From: Pecten maximus
Taxonomy: Eukaryota
Direction: 5' to 3'
Assembly (NCBI RefSeq): GCF_902652985.1
Contig: NC_047032.1
Location: 18,662,001 to 18,726,000 of the forward strand
DNA: 64,000 bases
Position numbers and translations under genes: made by a program
Shown here: positions 3,737-64,000 of the stretch, piece by piece
Position numbering within the stretch: the stretch's first letter is position 1
How the letters are laid out: every line of letters starts with the position of its first letter
Notes under the pieces: model-generated
Told to the model about the DNA's origin: nothing
Database searches by the model: none
What the model saw: only the letters and a program-made list of their open reading frames with translations

Positions 3737-4941
3737 CTGAAGTAAAAGGAAAAGGTACTTTTCTAACTGAGAGATAAATTGTTTAAGTTCATTCTCAAGC
3801 TATAAGTTTGAAAAATATTTGGTTTATAAGAAGACTGTGTTTATTTTTAAGAGTATGTAGCTTGTAATTTAAGAGGATTTTGTTTTTCTTTACTCATGTT
3901 CTTTTTCCACCAGGCTTAATATTTGTCTTTGGCTAATACCCGAACAAAAAAACTCGAATATCGAAATGATGTATTTACCCCTCTGTAAAGATTAATGAAA
4001 CACAGAGCATGTTATTGGTATTAATTTTATACATGGCACAATAGGTTTAATGACATGAACATTAAAACTGCATGAAAATAAAGAAGTAAACATATATTGT
4101 CTTGGCGTCGGTGGTATTATGTATGTGACGTAGCCGTCAAGTTAAAGAGGACAGTTAGGGAAAACATCTCCGCTGATACCGTCAAACAGGCTCTAACACT
4201 TCAAGGGGATTTCAGTCAATTAATAATGTTGTTTGATCAAAACCAAATTAACTTATTTTAATTATAATTGTTAATGACTGACATTTGGAACCCAATGTTA
4301 CTAATTATAAGATAGAGGCCAGTGAGGGGTCAGTGTGCATTTGCGCAGTAATATACAGCGCATCCTTTGTCCTTTTCCATCCCCGATTTATCGTGAAACA
4401 AAGGGAAGTAACTCTGATAGATCAGAAAACCAGCGACCAAACTTGATATAGACAAATTATATTGTATGTTTGAATTGCATTGAATTATTTAGATTATTTC
4501 TATGAACCTTAAGGGTTACAATTCAATAAGAACACTAACAAGGGAAAAAACTATACACTAGACGTGGTAAATAGTGTACATTGTACACGACGATTTGACA
4601 ATATTTCAATAAAAACCTGATCTATACTTATATACACACTTTACAACACACACATTTAACAATGTTTAATCATGCATGGATTGTTAAAGTATAATACTTT
4701 GCAGATGATAATTAATAGAGAAATGATACATAATTTATCAATTAATAGTTGTATAGCTTTGACAATGTATAAGGAACAATATGATGTGTATAATAGAAAA
4801 TAGCTTATTTGCTTGTCCTTAATATTTTGAAGATTTTGTAAATATATATGAATACCTATACTGAAATTAAATATCATTTGTGTGAAATATAATTTAGCGT
4901 GGTGCCGTTCAGTTTAACAACATTGCTGATTTTCGACCTAC

Positions 4942-6082
4942 CGAGTCCATTTTTGAGCGCGTTTGGTCCGTAAGTATCAGTATCCAACATGGTTCCTGAT
5001 TGGTCAAAACAACACCCAGCGCTGCATTCCGCTGTATGGTGACATTTAAGGCCTATACCATCAATTGTCGTTTTGGGTGGAGGAGGGAGCCTAGTTGGCG
5101 CAGGCGTCGAGGGCGTAAGTCTTGAAGTTGGGTTTAGCGATGTAGGCATGTAGAAGGGATCAGTCGGAGGGGGGAAGGTAGGGGCGTACGGGGATGGTGC
5201 CGTGGGTGGAAACATTGGTGGATTGGTAGGCGCGGTTGGTGGCATAGTTGGCGGTATAGTTGGTGGTGTAGGCCCTTGACCTTGATTGTTGAACAGAGCA
5301 GGACCCGGGAAGGGAAACCGTGGCTGTCCCGGAAAAGGAGCTTGGGGCTCAAATGGTTGCTGGTGGAAGGGTTGCTGGGTTGTCCTTTCATGTATGGGCC
5401 TCTGACGTGGCTTTCCAGGTTGCCTGCCCCGTTTCCTTTTCATCCAGTTTGAGTTTTTGCCTTGCCTGTTGATTCGTCGGTTGCCGCCTTGCCGCCTGGG
5501 GTTTGGATTGTTCCTCCAGTTTCTGTTCTGTTTCGGAGGTTTTTGAAACAATGGTATTTTGTTTGCCAACAATTGAGGCGGAGGGTTGTTCATTATCTTG
5601 TTGTTTACGCTGACTTTGATGAGTGGTTTATTTTTTTCCACAGACTTTCTTTTCCCTCCCCCTCCTCCTCCGATCCCTCCTCCCTGAGCCCTTCGAATAT
5701 GTTGTGATGGTGGTAGTGGGGGTTTCATATTGATCAAACTGTCAGCCATTGGATGCGAATTTTGATTTGGCCTTTGTGGTTGTACCGATGGTTCAAACTT
5801 GTAGGATGGCGACGGGTTTGCGTTACCGAAATTAAACCCAGAAGGGACAAAACTCTGGATACCCGCGACAGATGGAGCTTGTGTAGTTATTGCCTCTTTC
5901 TGAAATTGAAAAGGTTGAGCAAACTGTCGTAATTCAGGGCGGTATGTTGGAAAACCATTCGTCCTCGTATTCTTGTGGGGTTGTATAGAGTTCTGCTCCA
6001 ATGGATGCGACTGCTGTTTCATGTTTGAACGAAAAGGACCATTGTTCGATCTTTGGTTGTTGTTCGGACTGATCCAAGAATT
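4942..6082 (-). CDS. Large 1141-nt exon: N/Q/P/R-rich low-complexity region, P/T-rich linker and start of the Cys domain (CHHTAECSAGCC)
   Basis: Inside the 407-aa ORF; acceptor tttacattacag at 6083-6084, donor G|gtaggt at 4941; phase 0 to phase 1; GC-rich relative to its flanks. Confidence 0.9.
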
Positions 6083-6419
6083 CTGTAATGTAAACATGTA
6101 AAACCTTATTTATCAACCTTTTTGTTAATTTTAAAACCATTCAGAAAAAAACCTTATTTCGGCCTCCTATAGCTCGAGATTGTAAAATGTATTCTATTTC
6201 AGTACTGCCCGCGGGCTATACGTTTTCAAATTGAATTGTATTTTGAAATTTTATTTCATGTTCCATTTTAACAAATGCCTTATTTTGCTGCAGCCCTGCA
6301 CGGAAAGATTGTTAATCCCTCATCATATTTTCATTTATATCCAAGATTAACATTGAAAATTACCTTATTTACATTAATCCCGAGATAAAATGGTATATTA
6401 GACGTCCTTAGATTTCATC

Positions 6420-13284: not shown

Positions 13285-16200
13285 ATATCGATATAACTAT
13301 CACTTACTTTGCGATGATCGCAGGGTTCTTTTCTAAAGAAAATTGTATTTGAATGTCAAATTCTATTGTTCAATCATTTTTATTCAATAGATCGATAATA
13401 GATCCCAAAACAAAGAGTAAATGCACTATTCATTAATAAGTTCGTAAGGCTTGAGAGACAGTGCGATCCACACATCATTCTACGCATGTCAAGATTTGCT
13501 CTCTGATTTTCGTCTCCTTTACTGCATCTTACTATATACACGGCCATAAAAAGTCCCCATATAATTTAATATTTTAATAATCACATACTTTTACAGAATC
13601 ATATTAACTTTTGAAGGGATAATTCACAGAGTGAAGTGTCATGATACATCGTTAAACAACGATATTTTCTGCATTTTTGGAATATTTCGGATGGGTTATT
13701 TTCATGAAAATTTGCAAATGAATAATCTTCAAAAGATTGCAAAATAAAGTTTCTGATTCATTTATACTATTTCACCAAGTCAAAAAAAGTGTTTTGGTCT
13801 TCTAAGGATTGGACTATTTATATAATATCATAACATGTAATGGAGAATGCTGATAAACGCTATTTGTTATGTTGTTCACTTTTCCTAATAAAGAATACGG
13901 ATACGAAAATGACAAAACAAACTTCTAAAATAAGAAAGACATAGATAAAGAAAGGATGTATCCTTGAACTAACTGATCACGTTTCGACTTCACATCATAT
14001 ATATATTCTTTTTAATCGGTTAGGATTCTCCATCTTTTTATGAAAGCCTTGTCATTGCAGATAGTGATATTTTGTTGTTTTCATTGGTACTGTCATTGTT
14101 TCCACTTTGAGTAATTGTTTTGTGGTCATGTGCCTTTGTGTACTTTTTTCATTTCTGAAGTATATAAATTAAGAATTGTCATTCATACTGAATCCGTAGT
14201 CGGTTTTGCTTATATAAATTCATCTATTTGATCAGGATTTTAATAAATGGCTCAGATCAATTTGAATCCTCATAATTATGTCACATTGTGAAAGGAAAAT
14301 GTTTAGTCGCGTCATAATGAAACATCTGTAAAAGAAACCTTACCTGTTGTCAGTCATAAACTCATACAGCAGTACATCATCTCAATTAGAGTGAACAAAA
14401 ATTAATGATGTCTTTATTTTCGACAACTTTATGTATATTGATACTCATTAATTGTATATGAAATATATATTTTTACATAATGCGTATGATACATATCCCC
14501 ATACATTCATATTACAACATCTGTTTCATGTCTACAGTAGTCTATCACATTATATTACCGTTGTAGCATTGTCGTAATAAATTGCTTACATGAGTTCCTG
14601 TCGCCATGAACCCGTGAATAATGTAATTATCTATTGAATAATATGCACTTTTATAGGTCCTTGGCTCACAAATCATTATGTGAAATGGAGCTGACACGTT
14701 TGCTAGATATCTAAATACATCAACCATTCAATTTATGGTAGATAGGCGTAGTTTCGACAGCACAAAACTCTTTAATTTTTATAGCGGCGACAAAGGTGAT
14801 TTTTGCGACGGAAAATATATCAAAAATAATAAATGGATGTGATGAACTGGAATATTCATAGTGATGGGATGAATGTTTCGGAATGTTTTTGCAGTCATAA
14901 TGTGCACGTCATTTTTAAAAATATGTCATCATCATTGTCCTTCTATTGAGCGGGTTAACCAGAATTTCTGTAACCCCTTACCAGGAAAATTATTTCAACT
15001 GTTGACCAGCTAGACAAGATTTAGAGAAAGCCCTGTCAATACCAACGCCTTGACAATACTAATTATTGTTGTCTTTAAAACTCATGAATTCACAGTGTGT
15101 TGAAAAAACATTTTGGAAACACATGGAACAAATTATTGCCACATTAAGAGATCAAGTTTCACCAGGTATTATTTTTATTATCCTAAGTTTCCAACGTTTT
15201 TATACTTCATTGTCCTAAATTTGTGTGCCGGCTGACGTTGATGAAGCAGAAGATGCTTACTCTTGCAGAGGACGTTGTCTTATTATTCCTGATTTATTCA
15301 AATGTTTTTCTCTAAAAATCTTCTTTTTTTTTCAAATCTTGGGGCATTTATCAATTTTAGATTGGAATTTCGTTATAATGTCGGTTATTCGTGTTGCTTT
15401 AGTCCCTAGCTTCATTTACGTGTTTCATCAGAACGATACGACGGAATTTTGCAGCTTTATACGATGTATTCATTTTTCGTCATTAACTTCATTTGTACCT
15501 TTGTTCTTTTCCAAAAGCTGTATTCAAGTGTGTGTTTATTTACCGGAATTTTAAATAACGTTGACATATAAATTAAGCATGCATTTATATGGTTATAAAG
15601 AGAACGACTTTGGACACTGAAAGAATATGGTTCTTTTTGTTTATCAACATTTAAACAATAACTAAAAAACTGTTTGAGGTCAACATATCTGGTATGATAT
15701 CGTGAGCTGTTCTGTGGCTTTTATCAACAAGTTACAACATTAAATTTTCGATTTGAGCATTGCAGCTATATCAGAAAAAATAATAGCACTTATGGCAATA
15801 AACCATATAGTGCCGTTATCAGAGGGCACATGAATTATTGGTGTTGTGCAACCTGACGCCTATTTGGCGAAAGTGATAATCGAGTTATCTCCCTTGTTAA
15901 AGGAAGACAACTTTGTGAAGATCAGCCAGAGAGTTATCAGGCTAAGTTTATCAAAAATTTACTTGCTTAAATACTTTATTTCTTCAATATTCAGATGTAA
16001 TACATTTCAATGATATTTGATGATATATTGTCAGTGTAAAAATTGCTTATATTAATAATGTGTACCGGTTGATGGCACCGGATCGTTGTTCAATATATGA
16101 AATGGCGTGGTCGTCCATATTTCTTCATATCTCGTATATGATATATTTGAGACCGCTGATGATAGTCAAACAAATCTTCAAGCCATCGGATTGAAATATC

Positions 16201-16544
16201 TGGCTCAACAATTTTGAGATTCAGTCCAATTGTAGCATATTTTGTCGCACCGTGCTTATGTTTAAATCAAACGCCAATGGTCGACTCGACCCAATCGCAC
16301 CACGTTGGGTCGAGTTGTCTTTTATTCAAATTGGGTCTTTGTCGGACTTAACCGATGGCATCACGTATATAGGGTCGAGTTGTCTTTTATTGAAATTAGG
16401 TCAAAGTATGTTAATGTATATTGATTATGGAACTTGGAAGCAATTCATAAAAGTTGATACTTTAATAATATATGAAATTACCCGTATACTCTACTATTCA
16501 TCTGCTAATAATATATCAAAACAGTGATCATGTATTGGAGCAGA

Positions 16545-17643
16545 AAATGTAGGACAGGGGGTACCATGGAGCCAGCTGTTAGTCAACCGGAGGAGGCTAC
16601 AGTAGAGCAACCGTTGGTGTCAGCTGAGAATGTGAGGCCACAGTCGGTTCAACAGGAACAGATCACAGCTGGCAATTAACAGACATCAAGGGAACCTGAG
16701 TACATATACAATGGGTATGACAATACTAACACATATATGACAAGTGTAAATGATAATTTAGGCTTGCATATAGCAGCTAATGTTAAACAAACAAAACAAA
16801 AAAATATCAATGGTGAATATATTGAGCTTGCCCATATGTTGTCACACTCCATGGGGATATCTGACGGTACCCACAAAATTTCTTTGATTGATGGGGAGTT
16901 ATAGTAGTGAAGCCCAAAACACAAACCCCTAAAATATCTGATATAAGTAAATGGACTGATGCATTTATAATATATAAGTATCTACACCCCTGTTCAATTT
17001 AGGCTTGCATGTAGCAGCTAATGTTAAGCAAAAAAATAATCAATGTGGAATATATTGAGCTTGCCCACTTGTTGTCACACTCCATGGGGGTATATGAAAA
17101 TACCCACAAAATTTCTTTGATTGATGGGAAGTAAGTAGTGAACCCACAAAATATCTGATATAAGTAAATGGATGGATGCATTTATAATATATATAAGTAT
17201 CTACACCTCTGTTCATTCAGGGCAACTGCATGGGCTATTGAAATATATGCAGATTGTTTGCCTTGGGGCACAATGATGTGGTGGTACTGGATGGTTGAAG
17301 TATGATGAGCAGTACTGGCTTAGAAAGTTAAAAAAAAAACAAAAAAAAAACCACATGAACATGGGACATTATTGACAATGAAATGTACTTGATATATATG
17401 CAGCCACAGAAGCAGGCGTTGCCACAGACACTGAATCATAACTTACAAAAATGCTTTGATTTCAATTACAAGGGCAGTTGTGCTCGGTCACATTGTACTT
17501 ACTCTCATAAATGTATTCGGTGTAATGGAGGGTATGCCACTCTCTATTGCTTTAAGGCAAACAATAGAAATTCCAATTCCTTTCAGTCAAAACCAAACTT
17601 CATACACTCAGTCTACGGTCCCAGAACAAAACAAGCAAGATAA
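16545..17643 (+). pseudogene. Ngaro gag-like ORF1 relic with a Cys/His zinc finger and an internal ~240-bp tandem duplication
   Basis: CFDFNYKGSCARSHCTYSHKCIRC at about 17452-17523; WLKYDEQY motif near 17290; 16755-16996 is duplicated at 16996-17215. Confidence 0.72.
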
Positions 17644-17799
17644 GGAACACAAACAGTTATGGCTTTAAAAATGTCCAGCTCATAAGCACTGGGTTACTAA
17701 ATATACAAACATGTCTGTAGGGAGGCTTCTTCTCCAAGGGTTTAAAGAGTTTCTAAACTTCATTATTTTTGCCCCAAGGGGAAAAAAAAAAAAAAAAAA

Positions 17800-18700
17800 A
17801 AATATGCAGGAAGTAGAATTAGGTAGGGTGGCAGGTTATTTTGATAACAAACCCATCGCACAGTGGAATAGTTCTCAAACAGGATGGAAAGTCGTGCCTA
17901 ATAACACATCTCTCGTTGCAATTAGGGGATAGCATGGATAGCAATATTGACCCTGATATGGTTTCAGCCCAATGCTCATCATTGGATAAAGTTGTTGAGA
18001 TGATAGCTGAGTTGGGCGAAGGTGCATTATTGGGGAAGATAGAGACCATCCAGCTGATTTTCCATTGTTAGGTTTTAAGTTTCAAGACAAATACTTGGAC
18101 AAATGTTTACCTATGGGTTGCTCAGTGTGGGGTAGTTTATTGAAAAGTTTTCATCTTTTATTGAGTGGATTGTTGGAGAGAAGTCTGGTGAACAAAGTTT
18201 AGATCATTATATAGATGACTTCATATTGCTGGGAAGGACAAAAGGATACATGTGCTAGCCTCCTAGGCTTGAAACATGTCGAGACATTGGTATACCTATC
18301 GCTGAGTAGAAATCTGAGGGTCCAACTACAACTGATATCCTTAGGTCTTGAAATTGACACAGTGGACATGGCAATTAGGGTCCCACAGGAAAAAGTTGTG
18401 GTATTAAGGGCAGAGATTTGGGAAGTTTTAGGTAGGGGGTAAAGGTTAGATTACAGGATTTACAGTCTGTAGCAGGGATAATGTCATTTCGTACTAATTC
18501 TTGAAATATTCTTACTCTGTAGTAAGGTTTTTGTATGCCTAACAGGACATAAAAAAAAAAAAAAAAAAAAAAAGTTGAATAAATACTCTAGCTATTGGTA
18601 TATTAGAGCTGACCTAGAGATGTGGTTGCAATTGTTAAGTCAATTCAATGGCAAATGCTGTTATTTTTAGGGAAAAGTCTTGGAATAGTAATGTGGATTT
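17800..18700 (+). pseudogene. Ngaro reverse transcriptase / RNase H relic
   Basis: EVELGRVAG, LITHLS, LGEGALLGK, DKCLPMGCS, HYIDDFI, LGLEIDT and DLEMWL, broken by many frameshifts and deletions. Confidence 0.85.
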
Positions 18701-18719
18701 AGTGTTGGGATTAGACATG

Positions 18720-19120
18720 CCAGATTACCTATTACTGTTGATCTGTTAGCAGGCATTATATCAGTCTTGACAAAAATGTAAAATATGCAGTTCCCAATAT
18801 GAGGTTAGCTTTGTTTAGTTGTGCCTGTTCATTGGCTTTCTATGGATTGTTTTCGTGTTGGAAAAATTACTGTCAGTAGTAGTAGGGACATGGCTTACAG
18901 GGTTGTAACTGTTGCACAAGTATCACTTCAGGGAAGTGCTGCTAAAGTAGTGTCCTCACCAAAGCATGCACTAGCTTTGGCTGTAACATTAATTTTCTTT
19001 ACAAGTCCCATTCATTCAGAATTGGGGTAACTACATCGACCTCCCCATGTGGTATGTCTACTGAAGATATTATGGAATGTGGTAGGTGGAAATCCAGTGT
19101 TTACAAAAGATACATCATAA
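18720..19120 (+). pseudogene. Ngaro tyrosine recombinase relic
   Basis: LAFYGLFRVGKIT near 18835; HSFRIGVTT...GRWKSSVYKRYI at 19009-19116. Confidence 0.85.
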
Positions 19121-19179
19121 TTCCAACCCCAAAAATAATTGTAAAGTGTTAGTACGCATTTTAAGATTTGTAGGTACCT

Positions 19180-19702
19180 GAGGGAAGGTCTGGATTCTTG
19201 TCATCAATCATTAAATATGACTTTGTTCACAGTCGGGTTTGCCCAGGAGGGGTACACCTTGGGCTGTCTCGCATTGGATTACAGTGTGGTGGCAGTTTAA
19301 AGGAGGTACATGTATGGTCATTTCGGACATCAAAAGTAAAATTTGTCACTTGGGAAATTTGAAACTGATCAACCAGCAAGGCTTGTCATACACTGTTGGG
19401 GTAATGACATAGGTAACACTTGGGTTGGGTGCATTGAATATAATTAAAGAAGATCATGTATTTCCTGATGTCTGAGTTCCCTGGGACATTATTGATATGC
19501 TTGTAAATATTACCCCGAAGCCATAAGTCATTAAGCACTTAAACAAGTCTGAAAGAGATTGAACAATACAATTTCTGATCATGTTTTATAGCATAGTGGA
19601 GCTGTTGTACTTTATACAGACTTGAAATTAGATAACCATTTTTTTTCTGAAAGATGGGGTCCACGTGTCTCCTTTGGGTAATGACCTCTTTCTTAACACC
19701 TT
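19180..19702 (+). pseudogene. Ngaro accessory SGNH/GDSL hydrolase-like ORF relic
   Basis: KVWIL at the start; LVIHCWGNDIG (GxND block) near 19382; DGVHVSPLGNDLFL (DxxH block) near 19653. Confidence 0.72.
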
Positions 19703-22700
19703 AAAAAAAAACAAAAAAAAAAAAAACAGGTTCTTCCCTAACAGTTACTAGTTCACAGTTACAAGTAACATGGAACAATAATGACATGTTAGGATTTTGG
19801 TCACAGCCTTGTACCGGGAAATGTGTCGCCTCCTCTTCTGTCTTCGTTTGGCTGTGAATGAGTTTCATGTGGATAACTCATTCATATGGCAGATTTCGCG
19901 GTACAAGCATTTATTGGTGATTATTGAGTTATTGATTGATATTGATTGATGTATATTGCGCATATTGATGCGAATCAGTGATATCTGTTTCCCAGTATCT
20001 ACTAATCAGTATTGTCATCTGATTGATTTGTAGTCAGCTGAAATCTGTTTCCCAGGATCAGCTGATTAATTGATTTGAATTGTTGTTGAATTGGTTGAGA
20101 ACTGTTTCCCAGGATCAGCTGATTAATTGATTTGAATTGTATTGTTTAATTGGTTGAGAACTGTTTCCCAGAATCAATCGATTAATTTGTTTGATTGAAA
20201 TTGAATTTATTGTTGGCGTGCCATTATGGTCTATTGACAGACCGGCCGCCATATCTTGGCAATAAAGCTGTGACCATAAATCCAAATTTAAATTGTTTGT
20301 GATATGTGCATCTATTGATAATAGCACTTATGGCAATAAACCATATAGTGCCGTTATCAGAGGGCACATGAATTATTGGTGTTGTGCAACCTGACGCCTA
20401 TTTGGCGAAAGTGATAATCGAGTTATCTCCCTTGTTAAAGGAAGACAACTTTGTGAAGATCAGCCAGAGAGTTATCAGGCTAAGTTTATCAAAAATTTAC
20501 TTGCTTAAATACTTTATTTCTTCACCCTCCCATAATCCCTCCCCTTTAGGATAGGATCTGTGTTCTGCTGTTGTTTTTTCTTTTTGTTATAGCGGTGGTG
20601 TGAGAAGGCAGGATAGTCACAGCTCCTGACCCCTTTTCGACGACGGATTCACAGCCCCAATTGAAATCTATTCCTTAGTGACGAGTATTGTGACGAACTT
20701 CTATTCCTTATTGACGATTATTGTGACCTGCTTCAAATGGCGGATTTCGCGTTATAAACTTTCAGAAGTCAATTTGACTTGTTCAGATTTCGCGGAACGG
20801 CAGATTTCGCGGTACAAGCATTTATTGGTGATTATTGAGTTATTGATTGATATTGATTGATGTATATTGCGCATATTGATGCGAATCAGTGATATCTGTT
20901 TCCCAGTATCTACTAATCAGTATTGTCATCTGATTGATTTGTAGTCAGCTGAAATCTGTTTCCCAGGATCAGCTGATTATTGATTTGAATTGTTGTTGAA
21001 TTGGTTGAGAACTGTTTCCCAGGATCAGCTGATTAATTGATTTGAATTGTATTGTTTAATTGGTTGAGAACTGTTTCCCAGAATCAATCGATTAATTTGT
21101 TTGATTGAAATTGAATTTATTGTTGGCGTGCCATTATGGTCTATTGACAGACCGGCCGCCATATCTTGGCAATAAAGCTGTGACCATAAATCCAAATTTA
21201 AATTGTTTGTGATATGTGCATCTATTGATAACTAAGAATACCGACATAATAACGAAAGCATCACACCAAGTCAAAGGAGATAACACGAAGGTTAAACAAG
21301 TATAGATTTGGAATGCGAAAAAGGAAACTAAGACCAAGTGGTCCGGAGAGTAAGCGTCTCCGGTTTCACCGACGACACCCGCTTTACATATAAAGGTCAA
21401 ATATAGGTCAAATATAGGTCACAATCTCTACTGAGAGTTAAGACCACTAACGTATCATCTGGATATCGCATATGTAAATATGATATTTCCAAATAAATAT
21501 GAGATCAAGATATCGGCCATAAAACGTAATCGTCCAAAAATACTGTACATGAACTTTTCACAAGAAGAAAAACTTCTATGCATGAATTAATGTAAACAGA
21601 CATACAGTATAACTGTTTAATAAAAAAAGGTATCTAACATTTTTAGAACTCTTCAGATATGTGCTTCAAAGTATCCAATTCGAGGAGGGAAATTAACATT
21701 TGTTTCCCTGCTGTTTCCATTTATTGACTTGCGTTATTCTTATTTGATCACTAGCGTTTAGTACATTTATTGCACCCTTTACAATAGCACTGTCTATTTA
21801 TACCGAATATTATACCAAGTGAAGAGGTCAGTGCAGAAATTATATTTCTCTTGACAAGGATAGATTCCCTTGCTTTATCCTAGATTCCAGGCGTTGGCTT
21901 CACTCCATGTAGGTAGCCCATGGTTAATTAACATTTCCTGCATGAAACATGTGTAAAATTAAATGTGTTTTTACTTTCTGTTCTGTCAAGGATATACACG
22001 TACTCTATGATATATTGTTACGTTATTTGTTTTAATCTATTTACGCAAATATATGCATAATTAAACGTGTTTCTTGGATTTAAGTACAAATGCATACAAT
22101 GAATATAAGATTAAGTTTACATAATATTATATTTAAACGTGATACATATATAGCCTAGAAAGAGAGGCTTTGCGAGCAGAATTAAAAACTTCTCCGACTT
22201 GTTTTCTAAGAACCTCATATGATATGTATGTTTTATCACATTACCAATGAGACTATAATTTAAAATTTTAAGTCAAAGTGTGGATAGCACCATCAAACTG
22301 AGTCAGCCATACCAGTGTGCCATTTCATTCATGACGTAACATAAACGGGTTTATAATGACGTCATAAATGATCTCAGATATGTACAATCAATGAAAATTC
22401 AAACATATATTATACTAGTGACTAATACAAAAATATAACAGGATTTTATTTAGTTGAAAACAGTCCGATTATGTGAGTAAAAGGTAAACTATAATTAAGG
22501 CTATTTCATATATTTATTTCATTTCTGTAAATACTTTCTCCTTTTTTTGAAATTATTGAAATCTTACAAACCAATTCATCCATTTTATATGTTTTTTTTT
22601 AAAATGATAACATGTAACATTTATTTAATTCAAATTCAAACATGCATATATCTAAATATATGAATGACTATCAAATGGATTTATGGATCACTAGACATTT

Positions 22701-58465: not shown

Positions 58466-59763
58466 CACCAAAGCATGTGTAAAACAAGTGGAAAAACAAA
58501 TATTTGAATTCATATGGGATGGTAAAACAGAAAAAATTAAACGTGCATCCATGATGGGTTATTACAAGCAAGGAGGATTAAACATACGTGATATAGAATC
58601 ACATACATTGTATTGATATGTTGAATATTAATTGGATTAAAATGTTAATAAGTGATTCCAAAGAAAACTGGAAAGTAATTCCTATGGACATTTTTGATGT
58701 TTTCGGGCCTAACCTTCTCATTTTTAGGATGAATATTGAGAAACTAAGTAATCTTCCGAAACAAAATATCAGCCAAATTCCAGAATTTTATAAATCAGTT
58801 CTAGATTCTTGGTTAAAATTGGGGGGAGGATTAAAACCACACTGTTCAAACTTTGCTGATATTAGAAAAGAGATACTATGGGGAAATAGAAATATCAAGC
58901 TAAAGGGCAAAACATTAGTAAACAAGAACTGGGCAGATAGTAATCTGATCACAATAGATGACATCACGAACAAAGAAAGGATAATCGACGAAATGAGTAT
59001 TCGCAACAAATTAATAAATGAGCGTAACTGGATCAGTGAAGTAACACAAATTAAAAAAGCAATTCCAACAGAATGGAAACGAATAATAAGAAGTGAAAAT
59101 TCGATTAAGACAGAAATAAAACATCAGATAAACTATTCCTTATATCAACATAAATACAATATTCATATTAATATCGAAACCATGAATAATAAACAAATGT
59201 ACAGGCTAGCTGTGACCAGAAAATTTAAACAGTCTTATAGTAAAGATATTTGGAACCGGAAGTTCAATATTGAGAATACTCAAACGGCCACAGATTTAAT
59301 GTATTTTATCTTTAGTCAACTAAAAGATAATAAACATAAAATATTTAGGTGGAAATTGTTTCATAATATCGTACCAAGTAAAGAACATTTAGAGCGATGG
59401 AAAATTGAAGAAAGTAACCTCTGTAATGTATGTCATGTTAAGGAAGACTATGTACACTACTTTATAGAATGTAAGTTCCTAGACTTATTTTGGAGGGGAA
59501 TTGAAGAAACATTCAAAACATATGGATATACAATAAATGTGAAAAATTTACAATACATCATTATAGGATATAAAATCAGTCAAGAAAATCACATTGAAAT
59601 TAATATTATCTTTACATTAATAGGCTACGCCATATATAGAGCCTTTCATATAAGTGAACAAAAGCGTAAAACTGTTGATATGCAAAGGCTGTTTAAAGAA
59701 GAGCTACTTATCATTAAAAACACCACGAAACTTAAACATTTTGCGTTAAAATTTAACCTCTAA
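58466..59763 (+). mobile_element. 3' part of a non-LTR retrotransposon ORF2 (L1/Tx1-like) with a zf-RVT-type zinc finger
   Basis: IFEFIWDGKTEKIKR...KQGGLNIRDI; FRWKLFHNIV; CNVC...EDYVHYFIEC; frameshift near 58615; 5' end lost in the gap. Confidence 0.88.
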
Positions 59764-62327: not shown

Positions 62328-62690
62328 TCATTTCAAGTTTTTCGTCATAAATTCGACCATCCTTCCTATGGCCAGATCGCAGCATTCCTTGTTGTAGTTA
62401 TCAGAGGTTGGATTGGTAAATGCGTGCCCTGCTTGGTAGGAATGGAATTCATATTTCACTCCTCCACGATCTAGCTTTTCTTTAAGTTTGGCCTGGGACT
62501 TCGGACAGGAGAAACCTTCCACAGCATCATTAGCACCGAAATGACATTGGAGGGGAATGGTGATTTTAGATAGGTCTGCAAGTCCATCACCGGAGATTCC
62601 ATAAAATGGAGCTGCCGCCTGTATTTCTGGTACAAGAGCGGCCGCTGCCAACGACAAAGCTCCGCCCATGCAAAAGCCCGTCACACCAAC
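62328..62690 (-). CDS. Dienelactone hydrolase family protein (carboxymethylenebutenolidase / usf-like), last exon
   Basis: Acceptor tatgtgcag; GFCMGG nucleophile Cys, HFGAND Asp and AGHAF His; stop at 62328-62330. Confidence 0.93.
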   Translation of the reverse strand, partial: VGVTGFCMGGALSLAAAALVPEIQAAAPFYGISGDGLADLSKITIPLQCHFGANDAVEGFSCPKSQAKLKEKLDRGGVKYEFHSYQAGHAFTNPTSDNYNKECCDLAIGRMVEFMTKNLK

Positions 62691-63036
62691 CTGCACATAA
62701 TTTAAGTGTTGTTGATTATTACAGCGGCATATATAAAAAAAAAGAAGAAATGTATAAACGACGATCACACAACTTTGCCCGTATCTAAGACAAGGTAGTT
62801 CAGCGATTGAACAACACTTCTCAAGACTAGAATCTGACCATGTACATGTATATCGGCAAGCGAAGTGGAACTCGAGTATATATAGTAGAACACTGTTTTA
62901 CTACATACTTATACATGTGTACATGTACGTCACACCTCTCACAATGAAAAAGTAAAGGTGACAAATCACTTACTACCACACCCCAATACACACATAATCA
63001 CCTTTCATGGAAAAAAATGATTAGATGCCAATGAAT

Positions 63037-63251
63037 TGTTTATTTTGTGAAACATTACCTTAACAGCCAGGGTCATTTAAGGACGTGGCATGTTTTGGAG
63101 GTGTTGGAAAGTCGGAGTACCCGGAGAAAAACCACCGGCCTACAGTCAGTACATGGCAACTGCCCCACGTAGGTTTTGAACTCGCAACCCAGAGGTGGAG
63201 GGCTAGTGATAAAGTGTTGGGACACCTTAACCACTCTGCCACCTCGGCCCC
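63037..63251 (-). mobile_element. tRNA-derived SINE, copy 4, in the hydrolase intron
   Basis: ggggccgaggtggcagagtggttaagg (A box), gagttcaaaacc (B box) and the shared core. Confidence 0.88.
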
Positions 63252-63641
63252 TCACATGGCCATGAAAAGGCTGTGTTTGTGCAGTTGTGCAAATATTGTA
63301 AGAAAGGGGAGATAATCAATAAGGAGTCAATTAAATTTGAACGACAAAGTTTGTGATTAACTATAGAATTAAAAACAAATACAAAATACAAAATGAAGGT
63401 TATCCGAGTTGAAAACTGTACTGAGGATTACTACTCGCGCAAACTCCCATTCGCAAAATATTGAAAGATTCAAGTCCAAGAATTAAACAAGGTCCAATAC
63501 ATCATGTCTTTTTTAGATGATCATGATGTTGAGGATACACATTATTTCATACGTTAGTGCCTTTTTCATAAACAATTACCAGAATTATTAATAAATGTAT
63601 TGTTTCTAACAAACTTAAGTTGAAAAGAAAAATGTACACAC

Positions 63642-63962
63642 CTTTTCACAGCCCATTGTCTTTAGTTCCCTTGCTGCTCCCGCAATGTCATCAATCGCCC
63701 CAAGCCAGTCCAGATCGCCCATATAATGACCAGCTTGTTCGTTGTCTATGGCAACTTTCCCTCGGTAAAGATCGGGAACAATCGTGACGAAGTTTCCTTT
63801 TCCTCCAATCATCGATGCCTCGTTCTGGATTTGATCGTTAAGTCCCCACCATTCTTGCAGAACAATCAGTCCTTTTTTGGTTTTTGAAATGTCCCCTGTT
63901 ATCACATATGGACAACTTCCCAGCTTGTTTTGTGACGGAAACGTTGGTCTTGTAGAAGCCAT
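63642..63962 (-). CDS. Dienelactone hydrolase family protein, upstream coding exon
   Basis: QEWWGLN and VPDLYRG motifs; donor AAG|gtgtgt, phase 0; spliced product is 227 aa; an acceptor-like tract upstream suggests a further exon beyond the window. Confidence 0.92.
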
Positions 63963-64000
63963 CGTAACTGAAATCTGCTAAAAATGAAAGGGAAATATTT

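Follow-up and report, generated by a model that had tools for sequence, protein, structure and literature searches.

One open question about DIRS-order elements is how their reverse transcription is primed and brought to an end. A locus in the 64,000-nucleotide stretch of Pecten maximus DNA analyzed here (the window) gives part of it a concrete form: what makes two copies of a repeat stay identical up to base 20524 and part at the next one, where a C-rich tract begins? A preliminary description of this DNA proposed that the tract is a cis signal shared by YR retrotransposons, which pauses RT or marks a priming or template-switch point and so sets the length of the repeat.

The Ngaro Element of the Window

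The element lies on the plus strand at 15780-21231, and self-comparison resolves it into split direct repeats in the order A1, B1-A2, B2. A1, the left repeat of 207 nt (15780-15986), recurs as the internal copy A2 (20318-20524), with different flanks around the two copies. B1 (19888-20321) starts with GGCAG, a variant of GGCG, is 99.8% identical to the right terminal repeat B2 (20799-21231), and forms the internal junction copy together with A2. Between A2 and B2 lies U, a unique spacer of 274 nt (20525-20798) opened by the C tract.

Broken gag-like, RT, YR, and SGNH/GDSL-hydrolase coding remains occupy 16680-19420, as revealed by tblastn with the ORFs of an intact relative (L092), whose matches fall at 17121-17616, 17807-18436, 18949-19134, and 19201-19420. 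Three of the L092 ORFs match RVT_1, Phage_integrase, and Lipase_GDSL_2, the latter two below the curated cut-off; a Pfam scan of the window element's own coding fragments gave no relevant match. The YR piece, with just 27% of its columns filled, groups with the split-repeat clade in the tree, and this grouping and the tblastn matches identify RT/RH and YR of the Ngaro type. Hydrolase-like remains follow the YR at 19201-19420 (a weak match in a decayed copy), and a DIRS-derived MT-region query found no match on this decayed element. Since the broken coding region still matches the RT, YR, and hydrolase-like ORFs of the intact relative, the element is, judged by its sequence, a decayed Ngaro element.

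The family to which it belongs comprises many near-identical copies that share one short 68-aa YR frame and have repeats 99-100% identical, and RNA-type contigs cover the window element, running through U without a joint. Taken together, these features make it likely that the family is non-autonomous and has moved in trans, retaining the tract. At L017/L018, a tandem B-A-U-B-A-U-B array, probably produced by unequal recombination, carries a damaged tract in its second unit.

A C Tract at the Base Where the Repeat Ends

Identity between A1 and A2 is 100% across the 207 nt and breaks off at the very next base, which is the first of the tract CCCTCCCATAATCCCTCCCC (20525-20544, plus strand, offset 0 from the A2 end). 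The preliminary description had placed the boundary at this base and had read the antisense strand as four G tracts with loops of 1, 5, and 1; both observations were reproduced. On the sense strand the C runs measure 3, 3, 3, and 4, and the cDNA (antisense) strand conforms to the canonical G-quadruplex definition (G3+ N1-7 x4). No other canonical G3x4 motif with loops of 1-7 occurs in the window outside low-complexity C/G tracts, which lie at about 34.7, 57.8-58.3, and 61.1-61.5 kb. Such a motif is indeed rare in an AT-rich element, as had been stated: of 2000 first-order Markov simulations of the Ngaro element (37% GC), 1.6% contained a canonical motif at any position. When the antisense strand is folded with ViennaRNA (RNA parameters), the minimum-energy structure contains a quadruplex at 20525-20544.

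Relatives of the window copy end their repeat at the same place. A search of the P. maximus genome returned 43 matches, 12 of which end at query base 207, the end of A. A boundary-copy sample was formed by 20 family loci taken whole plus the window copy; a full A1-B1-A2-B2 call was obtained in 12 and no call in 8, and at one locus (L145) the call fell wrongly on a satellite in the flank. In 12/12 callable full copies, A1 ends at one and the same base and does not continue through the motif. The tract starts at offset 0 in 20/20 distinct A2-U units, 17 of which keep four C3 runs. Comparison of A1 with A2 within copies showed 29 shared and 6 private variants. Because copy-specific variants are common to A1 and A2 up to base 186 of 207, 21 nt short of the boundary, the A repeat is, on this evidence, re-equalized almost as far as the tract.

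The DIRS Element of the Window

A DIRS element runs on the minus strand from 50737 to 45857. Its left terminus (50672-50737) and right terminus (45857-45974) are inverted, and its internal complementary region (ICR, 46099-46222) is complementary to both ends, the arrangement of DIRS1-like elements. Within the ICR, 46182-46222 matches the left end (50697-50737) and 46099-46188 matches the right end, where 45857-45946 is its inverse complement; a further part of the right terminus, 45907-45974, is inverse-complementary to the left one. RT and YR coding pieces lie at 46470-48662 (RVT_1, E 1e-11; Phage_integrase, E 0.006, below cut-off). Directly past the ICR end at 46099, at offset 0, stands the counterpart of the Ngaro tract, two CCCTCCC units in the form CCCTCCC-N8-CCCTCCC (46098-46077). 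The earlier report of an equivalent motif at the equivalent position was therefore accurate, with a central loop of 8 nt that falls just beyond the strict 1-7 definition.

On both sides, this element is embedded in a 55-61 bp satellite (45779-45863 and 50734-53229). Elsewhere in the window, an ORF with a zf-RVT domain (58597-59760) belongs to a LINE-type element tail interrupted by C/A-rich simple sequence, a proline/glutamine-rich ORF on the minus strand (4874-6109) ends in a cysteine cluster, and exons on the minus strand at 62328-63977 presumably represent a dienelactone-hydrolase-type host gene.

Position and Strand of the Tract across 59 Families

YR loci of the P. maximus genome were gathered by searching with a Pfam model and with two proteins of the window, and 140 stretches were taken, with preference for long open YR frames. 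Boundaries were called by self-BLAST, blind to the motif. The 142 elements comprised 69 with a boundary call and 73 without one (no RT, incomplete, or satellite-masked). Four of the 69 calls were satellite artefacts (L040, L041, L043, and L145), and the 65 elements left form 35 families at 80% identity, 20 split-repeat and 15 DIRS.

An outside sample was drawn from eukaryote-type elements in metagenome-assembled genomes and metagenome contigs, whose content suggests marine invertebrate hosts; it provided 13 split-repeat and 11 DIRS families. The split-repeat part began with 57 loci, of which 10 full and 3 A-only calls were kept. Those dropped include a contig-end repeat (L165), an internal tandem repeat (L191), two inverted-repeat calls beside Ngaro-type YRs, both without the tract (L185 and L208), and seven B-only loci without a definable boundary, in 7/7 of which a four-run C tract lies between B1 and B2. 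The DIRS part comprised 84 loci, with an ICR call in 17 (11 families). Altogether, 59 families of Ngaro, PAT-like (two), and DIRS elements were covered, fungal, algal, vertebrate, and protist elements being outside the set; p-values overstate independence here, since the families share ancestry. Viral contigs, scanned twice, yielded no relative. The two PAT-like families (L030 and L054) are likely so assigned, given that they form a separate YR clade among the split-repeat elements and that L054 has a weak Dam match. Within groups the median YR identity is 33-36%, between groups 17% (56 of 59 rows; WN, WD, and L229 left out), and groups whose elements keep the tract have YR proteins only 8-27% identical to each other. 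An RT tree of 8 rows, one of which was a false pick, was left out of the comparison.

A sense-strand C tract stands at the end of the junction copy in 56 of the 59 families (L121 counted), at offsets of -2 to +2 in split-repeat elements and 0 to +8 in DIRS. More precisely, a CC-N1-2-CC unit starts at -2 to +2 in 19/20 own-genome and 10/13 outside split-repeat families, and at 0 to +8 in 14/15 own-genome and 10/11 outside DIRS families, the two DIRS misses beginning with CCC. CCC occurs within -3 to +10 in 15/15 own-genome DIRS families, 14 of which have the CCC-N1-2-CC core; in the outside sample the tract is present in 10/13 split-repeat and 11/11 DIRS families. At the paired control boundary, the core was found in 0/59 families, against a background of 0.5-2.7%. 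Among own-genome split-repeat families, four runs of at least two C start within -3 to +10 of the A2 end in 19/20, ten of them canonical G3x4; the four-run form follows A1 in 0/20, with a background of 0.8%. The G-rich form on the sense strand was found in 0/35 own-genome families.

The single own-genome miss, L121, has its tract 74 nt past the called boundary. In a follow-up search, seven other matches end at query 238-239, where this tract starts, which indicates that L121's own A1 is truncated; for two of the seven, a full A2-U match follows 5-7 kb downstream.

The C tract is thus a real and widespread cis signal of YR retrotransposons, and its position is strongly supported. As to the preliminary proposal of a shared signal, its tie to the junction-copy end stood, with positional enrichment across families (56/59, compared with 0/59 for the core at control boundaries). 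Its form had to be revised: the canonical G3x4 motif is present in just 17/59 families, and what they share is a four-run C/G tract.

Architecture of the Tract and Its Exceptions

Four C runs occur in 52/59 families (L121 counted), far above shuffles; apart from the canonical tracts, the families have two-tier or long-loop forms, and three are T-rich. In the 20 own-genome split-repeat families, the two-tier four-run order was observed 18 times, with 4.1 expected from composition, and the three-tier order 10 times, with 1.3 expected. A second half-unit follows within 62 nt in 21/24 DIRS families (1.9 by shuffle). Run lengths range from CC to C24, the spacing of the half-units varies from 1 to 48 nt, and the short loops take any base (T 62, A 42, and G 6 of 110). 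A fixed strand, a four-run order, and free loops are the marks predicted for a quadruplex-type sequence on the antisense strand.

A recurring run pattern of 3,2,2,4, equivalent to 11 G on the cDNA and one G below three tiers, is found in L099, L105, L121, L123, L127, L130, L140, and L169, often trailed by an extra CCTCC.

Departures from the four-run form are of several kinds. Half or three-run tracts occur in L076, L192, L225, and, by the strict test, L289, and L064 has a lone CCC run. Three Ngaro families (L174, L187, and L190) are T-rich in place of the C tract and are nested among tract-bearing relatives, where they account for about two losses inside a tract-bearing clade; L174 and L187 retain a sense pyrimidine/antisense purine run. 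In all three, B starts G/C-rich. RT pausing occurs at A/T runs on DNA templates, and in these T-run families another kind of pause signal may have taken the place of the C tract. In five DIRS families the central loop measures 27-48 nt. According to PMC8501965, quadruplexes that combine one long loop with two 1-nt loops do form, becoming weaker as the long loop lengthens. Hairpins that would stabilize the long loops were considered and set aside, as their support was marginal (p 0.04-0.57, 6 loops). For L068, ViennaRNA predicted no quadruplex.

A Proposed Stop and Template Switch

The proposal that best organizes these observations, and to which we give an even chance, is that the tract acts as a folded stop, predicted to be of the G-quadruplex type, on single-stranded antisense cDNA, where it would force a template switch and fix the end of the repeat. 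A C-rich RNA strand cannot fold into a quadruplex, so the geometry indicates a stop while the cDNA is being copied in the sense direction and not a pause in first-strand synthesis. Junction copying on the cDNA would meet the G tract exactly where repeat identity ends, and from this coincidence we infer the stop or template-switch signal.

In the proposed sequence of events, RT would first make antisense cDNA from an RNA without its outer ends, and RNase H would leave this cDNA single-stranded. Sense-direction synthesis across the junction copy (B1-A2 in Ngaro and PAT, the ICR in DIRS) would then rebuild the missing ends. In both designs the G tract provides the next template bases, at which synthesis would halt; the stalled end could pair with the terminal repeat and continue. 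A1, or the right terminus, would in this way be rewritten in each cycle from the internal copy, up to the tract base. In LTR elements, a modified base of the tRNA primer ends plus-strand strong-stop DNA, and the tract stop would be its counterpart. A broader claim, for which we see somewhat less than an even chance, extends the scheme to all three animal YR designs (DIRS, PAT-like, and Ngaro): a cDNA G-quadruplex would serve as a programmed stop and template switch that defines repeat ends, an ancient required step replacing the tRNA/PPT boundaries.

Work on other elements provides some support for this sequence of events. DIRS-1 cDNA is antisense, single-stranded, and mostly linear, the ICR is needed after first-strand synthesis, and its deletion leaves first-strand cDNA intact (PMC7192593). 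In Ty1, a quadruplex inserted on the template (minus) strand yields shortened cDNA ending at the motif; quadruplex stabilization brought no increase in this stop, which counts against the stop model (PMC8074290, in part). Several features of the survey also weigh against a folded stop. Canonical G3x4 is confined to 17/59 families, and many of the others have the two-tier form (3,2,2,4), which is weaker. The partial, single-run, and T-rich families point the same way, as do the weak folds to be expected of the 27-48 nt central loops in five DIRS families, the marginal hairpin support, and the missing quadruplex prediction for L068. A sharp stop would, moreover, leave less play than the offsets of up to 8 nt seen in DIRS.

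Alternative Explanations

The tract might instead mark the start of a strand. A fragment of the C-rich RNA that survives RNase H on the cDNA would prime the second strand, and its own 5' end would block the copying of the junction; alternatively, a G-rich primer would anneal on the RNA as at a PBS. Geometry, strand, and exact offset would be the same as under the stop model, and the polypyrimidine/polypurine run kept by L174 and L187 is in its favor. Known PPT primers are purine-rich RNA, unlike the pyrimidine-rich RNA of these elements, and the loops often interrupt the purine run (A 42 and G 6 of 110). No matching G-rich donor was found: the longest sense-strand complement measures 6-10 nt in 34/35 own-genome families, and the 14-nt complement of the remaining one is a local palindrome. 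Self-priming by a G-rich stretch inside the element was rejected likewise, no complement being found in the 35 own-genome families. A priming role also leaves the four runs and the distant second half-unit unexplained. In the available text of the sources, priming sites set LTR edges (PMC3902901) and no primer of DIRS reverse transcription is known (PMC7192593), both of which suit a primer; against it, the latter describes first-strand cDNA that stays intact without the ICR and DIRS-1 cDNA that still transposes after plasmid-kit preparation. On balance, we consider a primer site unlikely.

A protein roadblock, which we also hold to be improbable, would have the CCCNCCC units bound by an element protein (Gag zinc knuckle, RT, or YR) or by a host poly(C)- or G-tract-binding protein, and the bound protein would stop synthesis or position the switch. 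It would fit the observed geometry as well. The units resemble Sp/KLF/MAZ and poly(C)-binding-protein motifs, and two half-units at a variable spacing of 1-48 nt suit a dimer or multi-domain binder. A footprint would also accommodate the lone half-units of L076 and L225 and the 2-8 nt offsets of one DIRS subset. Runs from CC to C24 with free loops are, however, loose for a sequence reader, and the element proteins of the two groups, very distant from each other, would have to read one motif. Such binding is compatible with the folded stop, as a protein may bind the fold.

Far less probable is a transcription or RNA-processing element (a GC/GT-box promoter, a terminator, or the pyrimidine tract of a splice acceptor) kept in U because A1 and A2 must differ there. 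The motif resembles GC/GT boxes. GC boxes function in both orientations, yet the strand of the tract is fixed, and an element of this type has no need to abut the repeat end to the base. An acceptor-like pyrimidine tract with AG lies deeper in U in 11/33 split-repeat families (background 11%), and plant LTR quadruplex motifs cluster by promoters (PMC3902901, in part), both of which favor this explanation. Four runs of RNA-type contigs, which show presence only, pass A2, the tract, and U without a joint, and splicing at the tract was rejected for this reason. In the window's U, a splice-acceptor-like pyrimidine run with AG lies at about 20575-20592, with no joint in the contigs. The contig starts at 15957 and 20495 were discarded as transcript starts; both precede the A branch points by 30 nt and arise from the assembly.

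Chance or a deletion artefact in the window copy, for which the decay of that copy would speak, can practically be dismissed, the deletion being ruled out by the same boundary in 12/12 callable copies and the tract recurring in 56/59 families.

Significance of the Tract and a Second Boundary Signal

With the folded stop as the working model, the tract would offer a first handle on how the ends of DIRS-order elements are rebuilt. A signal of 15-25 nt at the same functional point of inverted-repeat and split-repeat designs suggests one shared mechanism, and it links DIRS to the split-repeat elements, two groups whose common origin is debated. Mutations could be aimed at it precisely in the DIRS-1 transposition assay that already exists, and in annotation it is of practical use for marking where A2 and the ICR end. 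If the tract folds, it would represent a quadruplex needed by a retroelement, not just tolerated.

A second conserved boundary signal was observed at the other repeat. GGCG occurs within -6 to +16 of the B start (19888 and 20799 in the window) in 16/30 split-repeat families, with a background of 3%, and is possibly the other priming or switch point.

Comparison with Known Systems

The tract apparently constitutes an undescribed cis signal in known element families. No description of it was found in the literature within search reach; a passing mention may exist in the original accounts of these elements (Cappello 1985; Goodwin and Poulter; those on PAT, TOC1, and kangaroo), which lie beyond that reach. 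PMC9210276, PMC3266345, PMC3783388, PMC6681497, PMC4157794, and PMC8547959 describe the repeats and, in their accessible parts, no such signal.

With the Ngaro superfamily (A1-ORFs-B1-A2-B2) the window element shares split direct repeats, RT, YR, and a hydrolase-like ORF after the YR. In the parts available, the Ngaro literature describes no A2-end signal and draws B1A2B2 without a unique spacer, which measures 48-950 nt in the elements studied here (PMC9210276 and PMC8547959). The DIRS-1 ICR model (Cappello, as presented in PMC7192593) likewise rebuilds ends by ICR copying on single-stranded antisense cDNA; as given there in the accessible text, it offers no reason for copying to end at the ICR edge and names no primer, and the tract is a candidate for that edge signal.

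Comparison with LTR elements situates the tract among signals that fix a boundary. PBS and PPT are likewise short cis signals that abut the repeat and fix its edge. On the RNA, the tract adjoins the repeat on its 3' side (offsets of -2 to +2 in split-repeat elements), a PBS-like place just 3' of the full B-A block. Unlike a PBS, it begins with CC(C) and has a variable sequence without TGG or a tRNA-like constant start, in the boundary sequences inspected. Whereas a PPT is purine-rich RNA 5' of the repeat, the tract is purine-rich on the opposite strand, lies 3' of the repeat, and has a four-run layout. LTR retrotransposon quadruplexes are similarly strand-biased, and one on the minus strand can interrupt reverse transcription; in the accessible text of PMC3902901 and PMC8074290, these quadruplexes lie inside LTRs near promoters or are inserted and inhibitory, whereas the tract described here is native, stands outside the repeat at a fixed offset, and is apparently retained.
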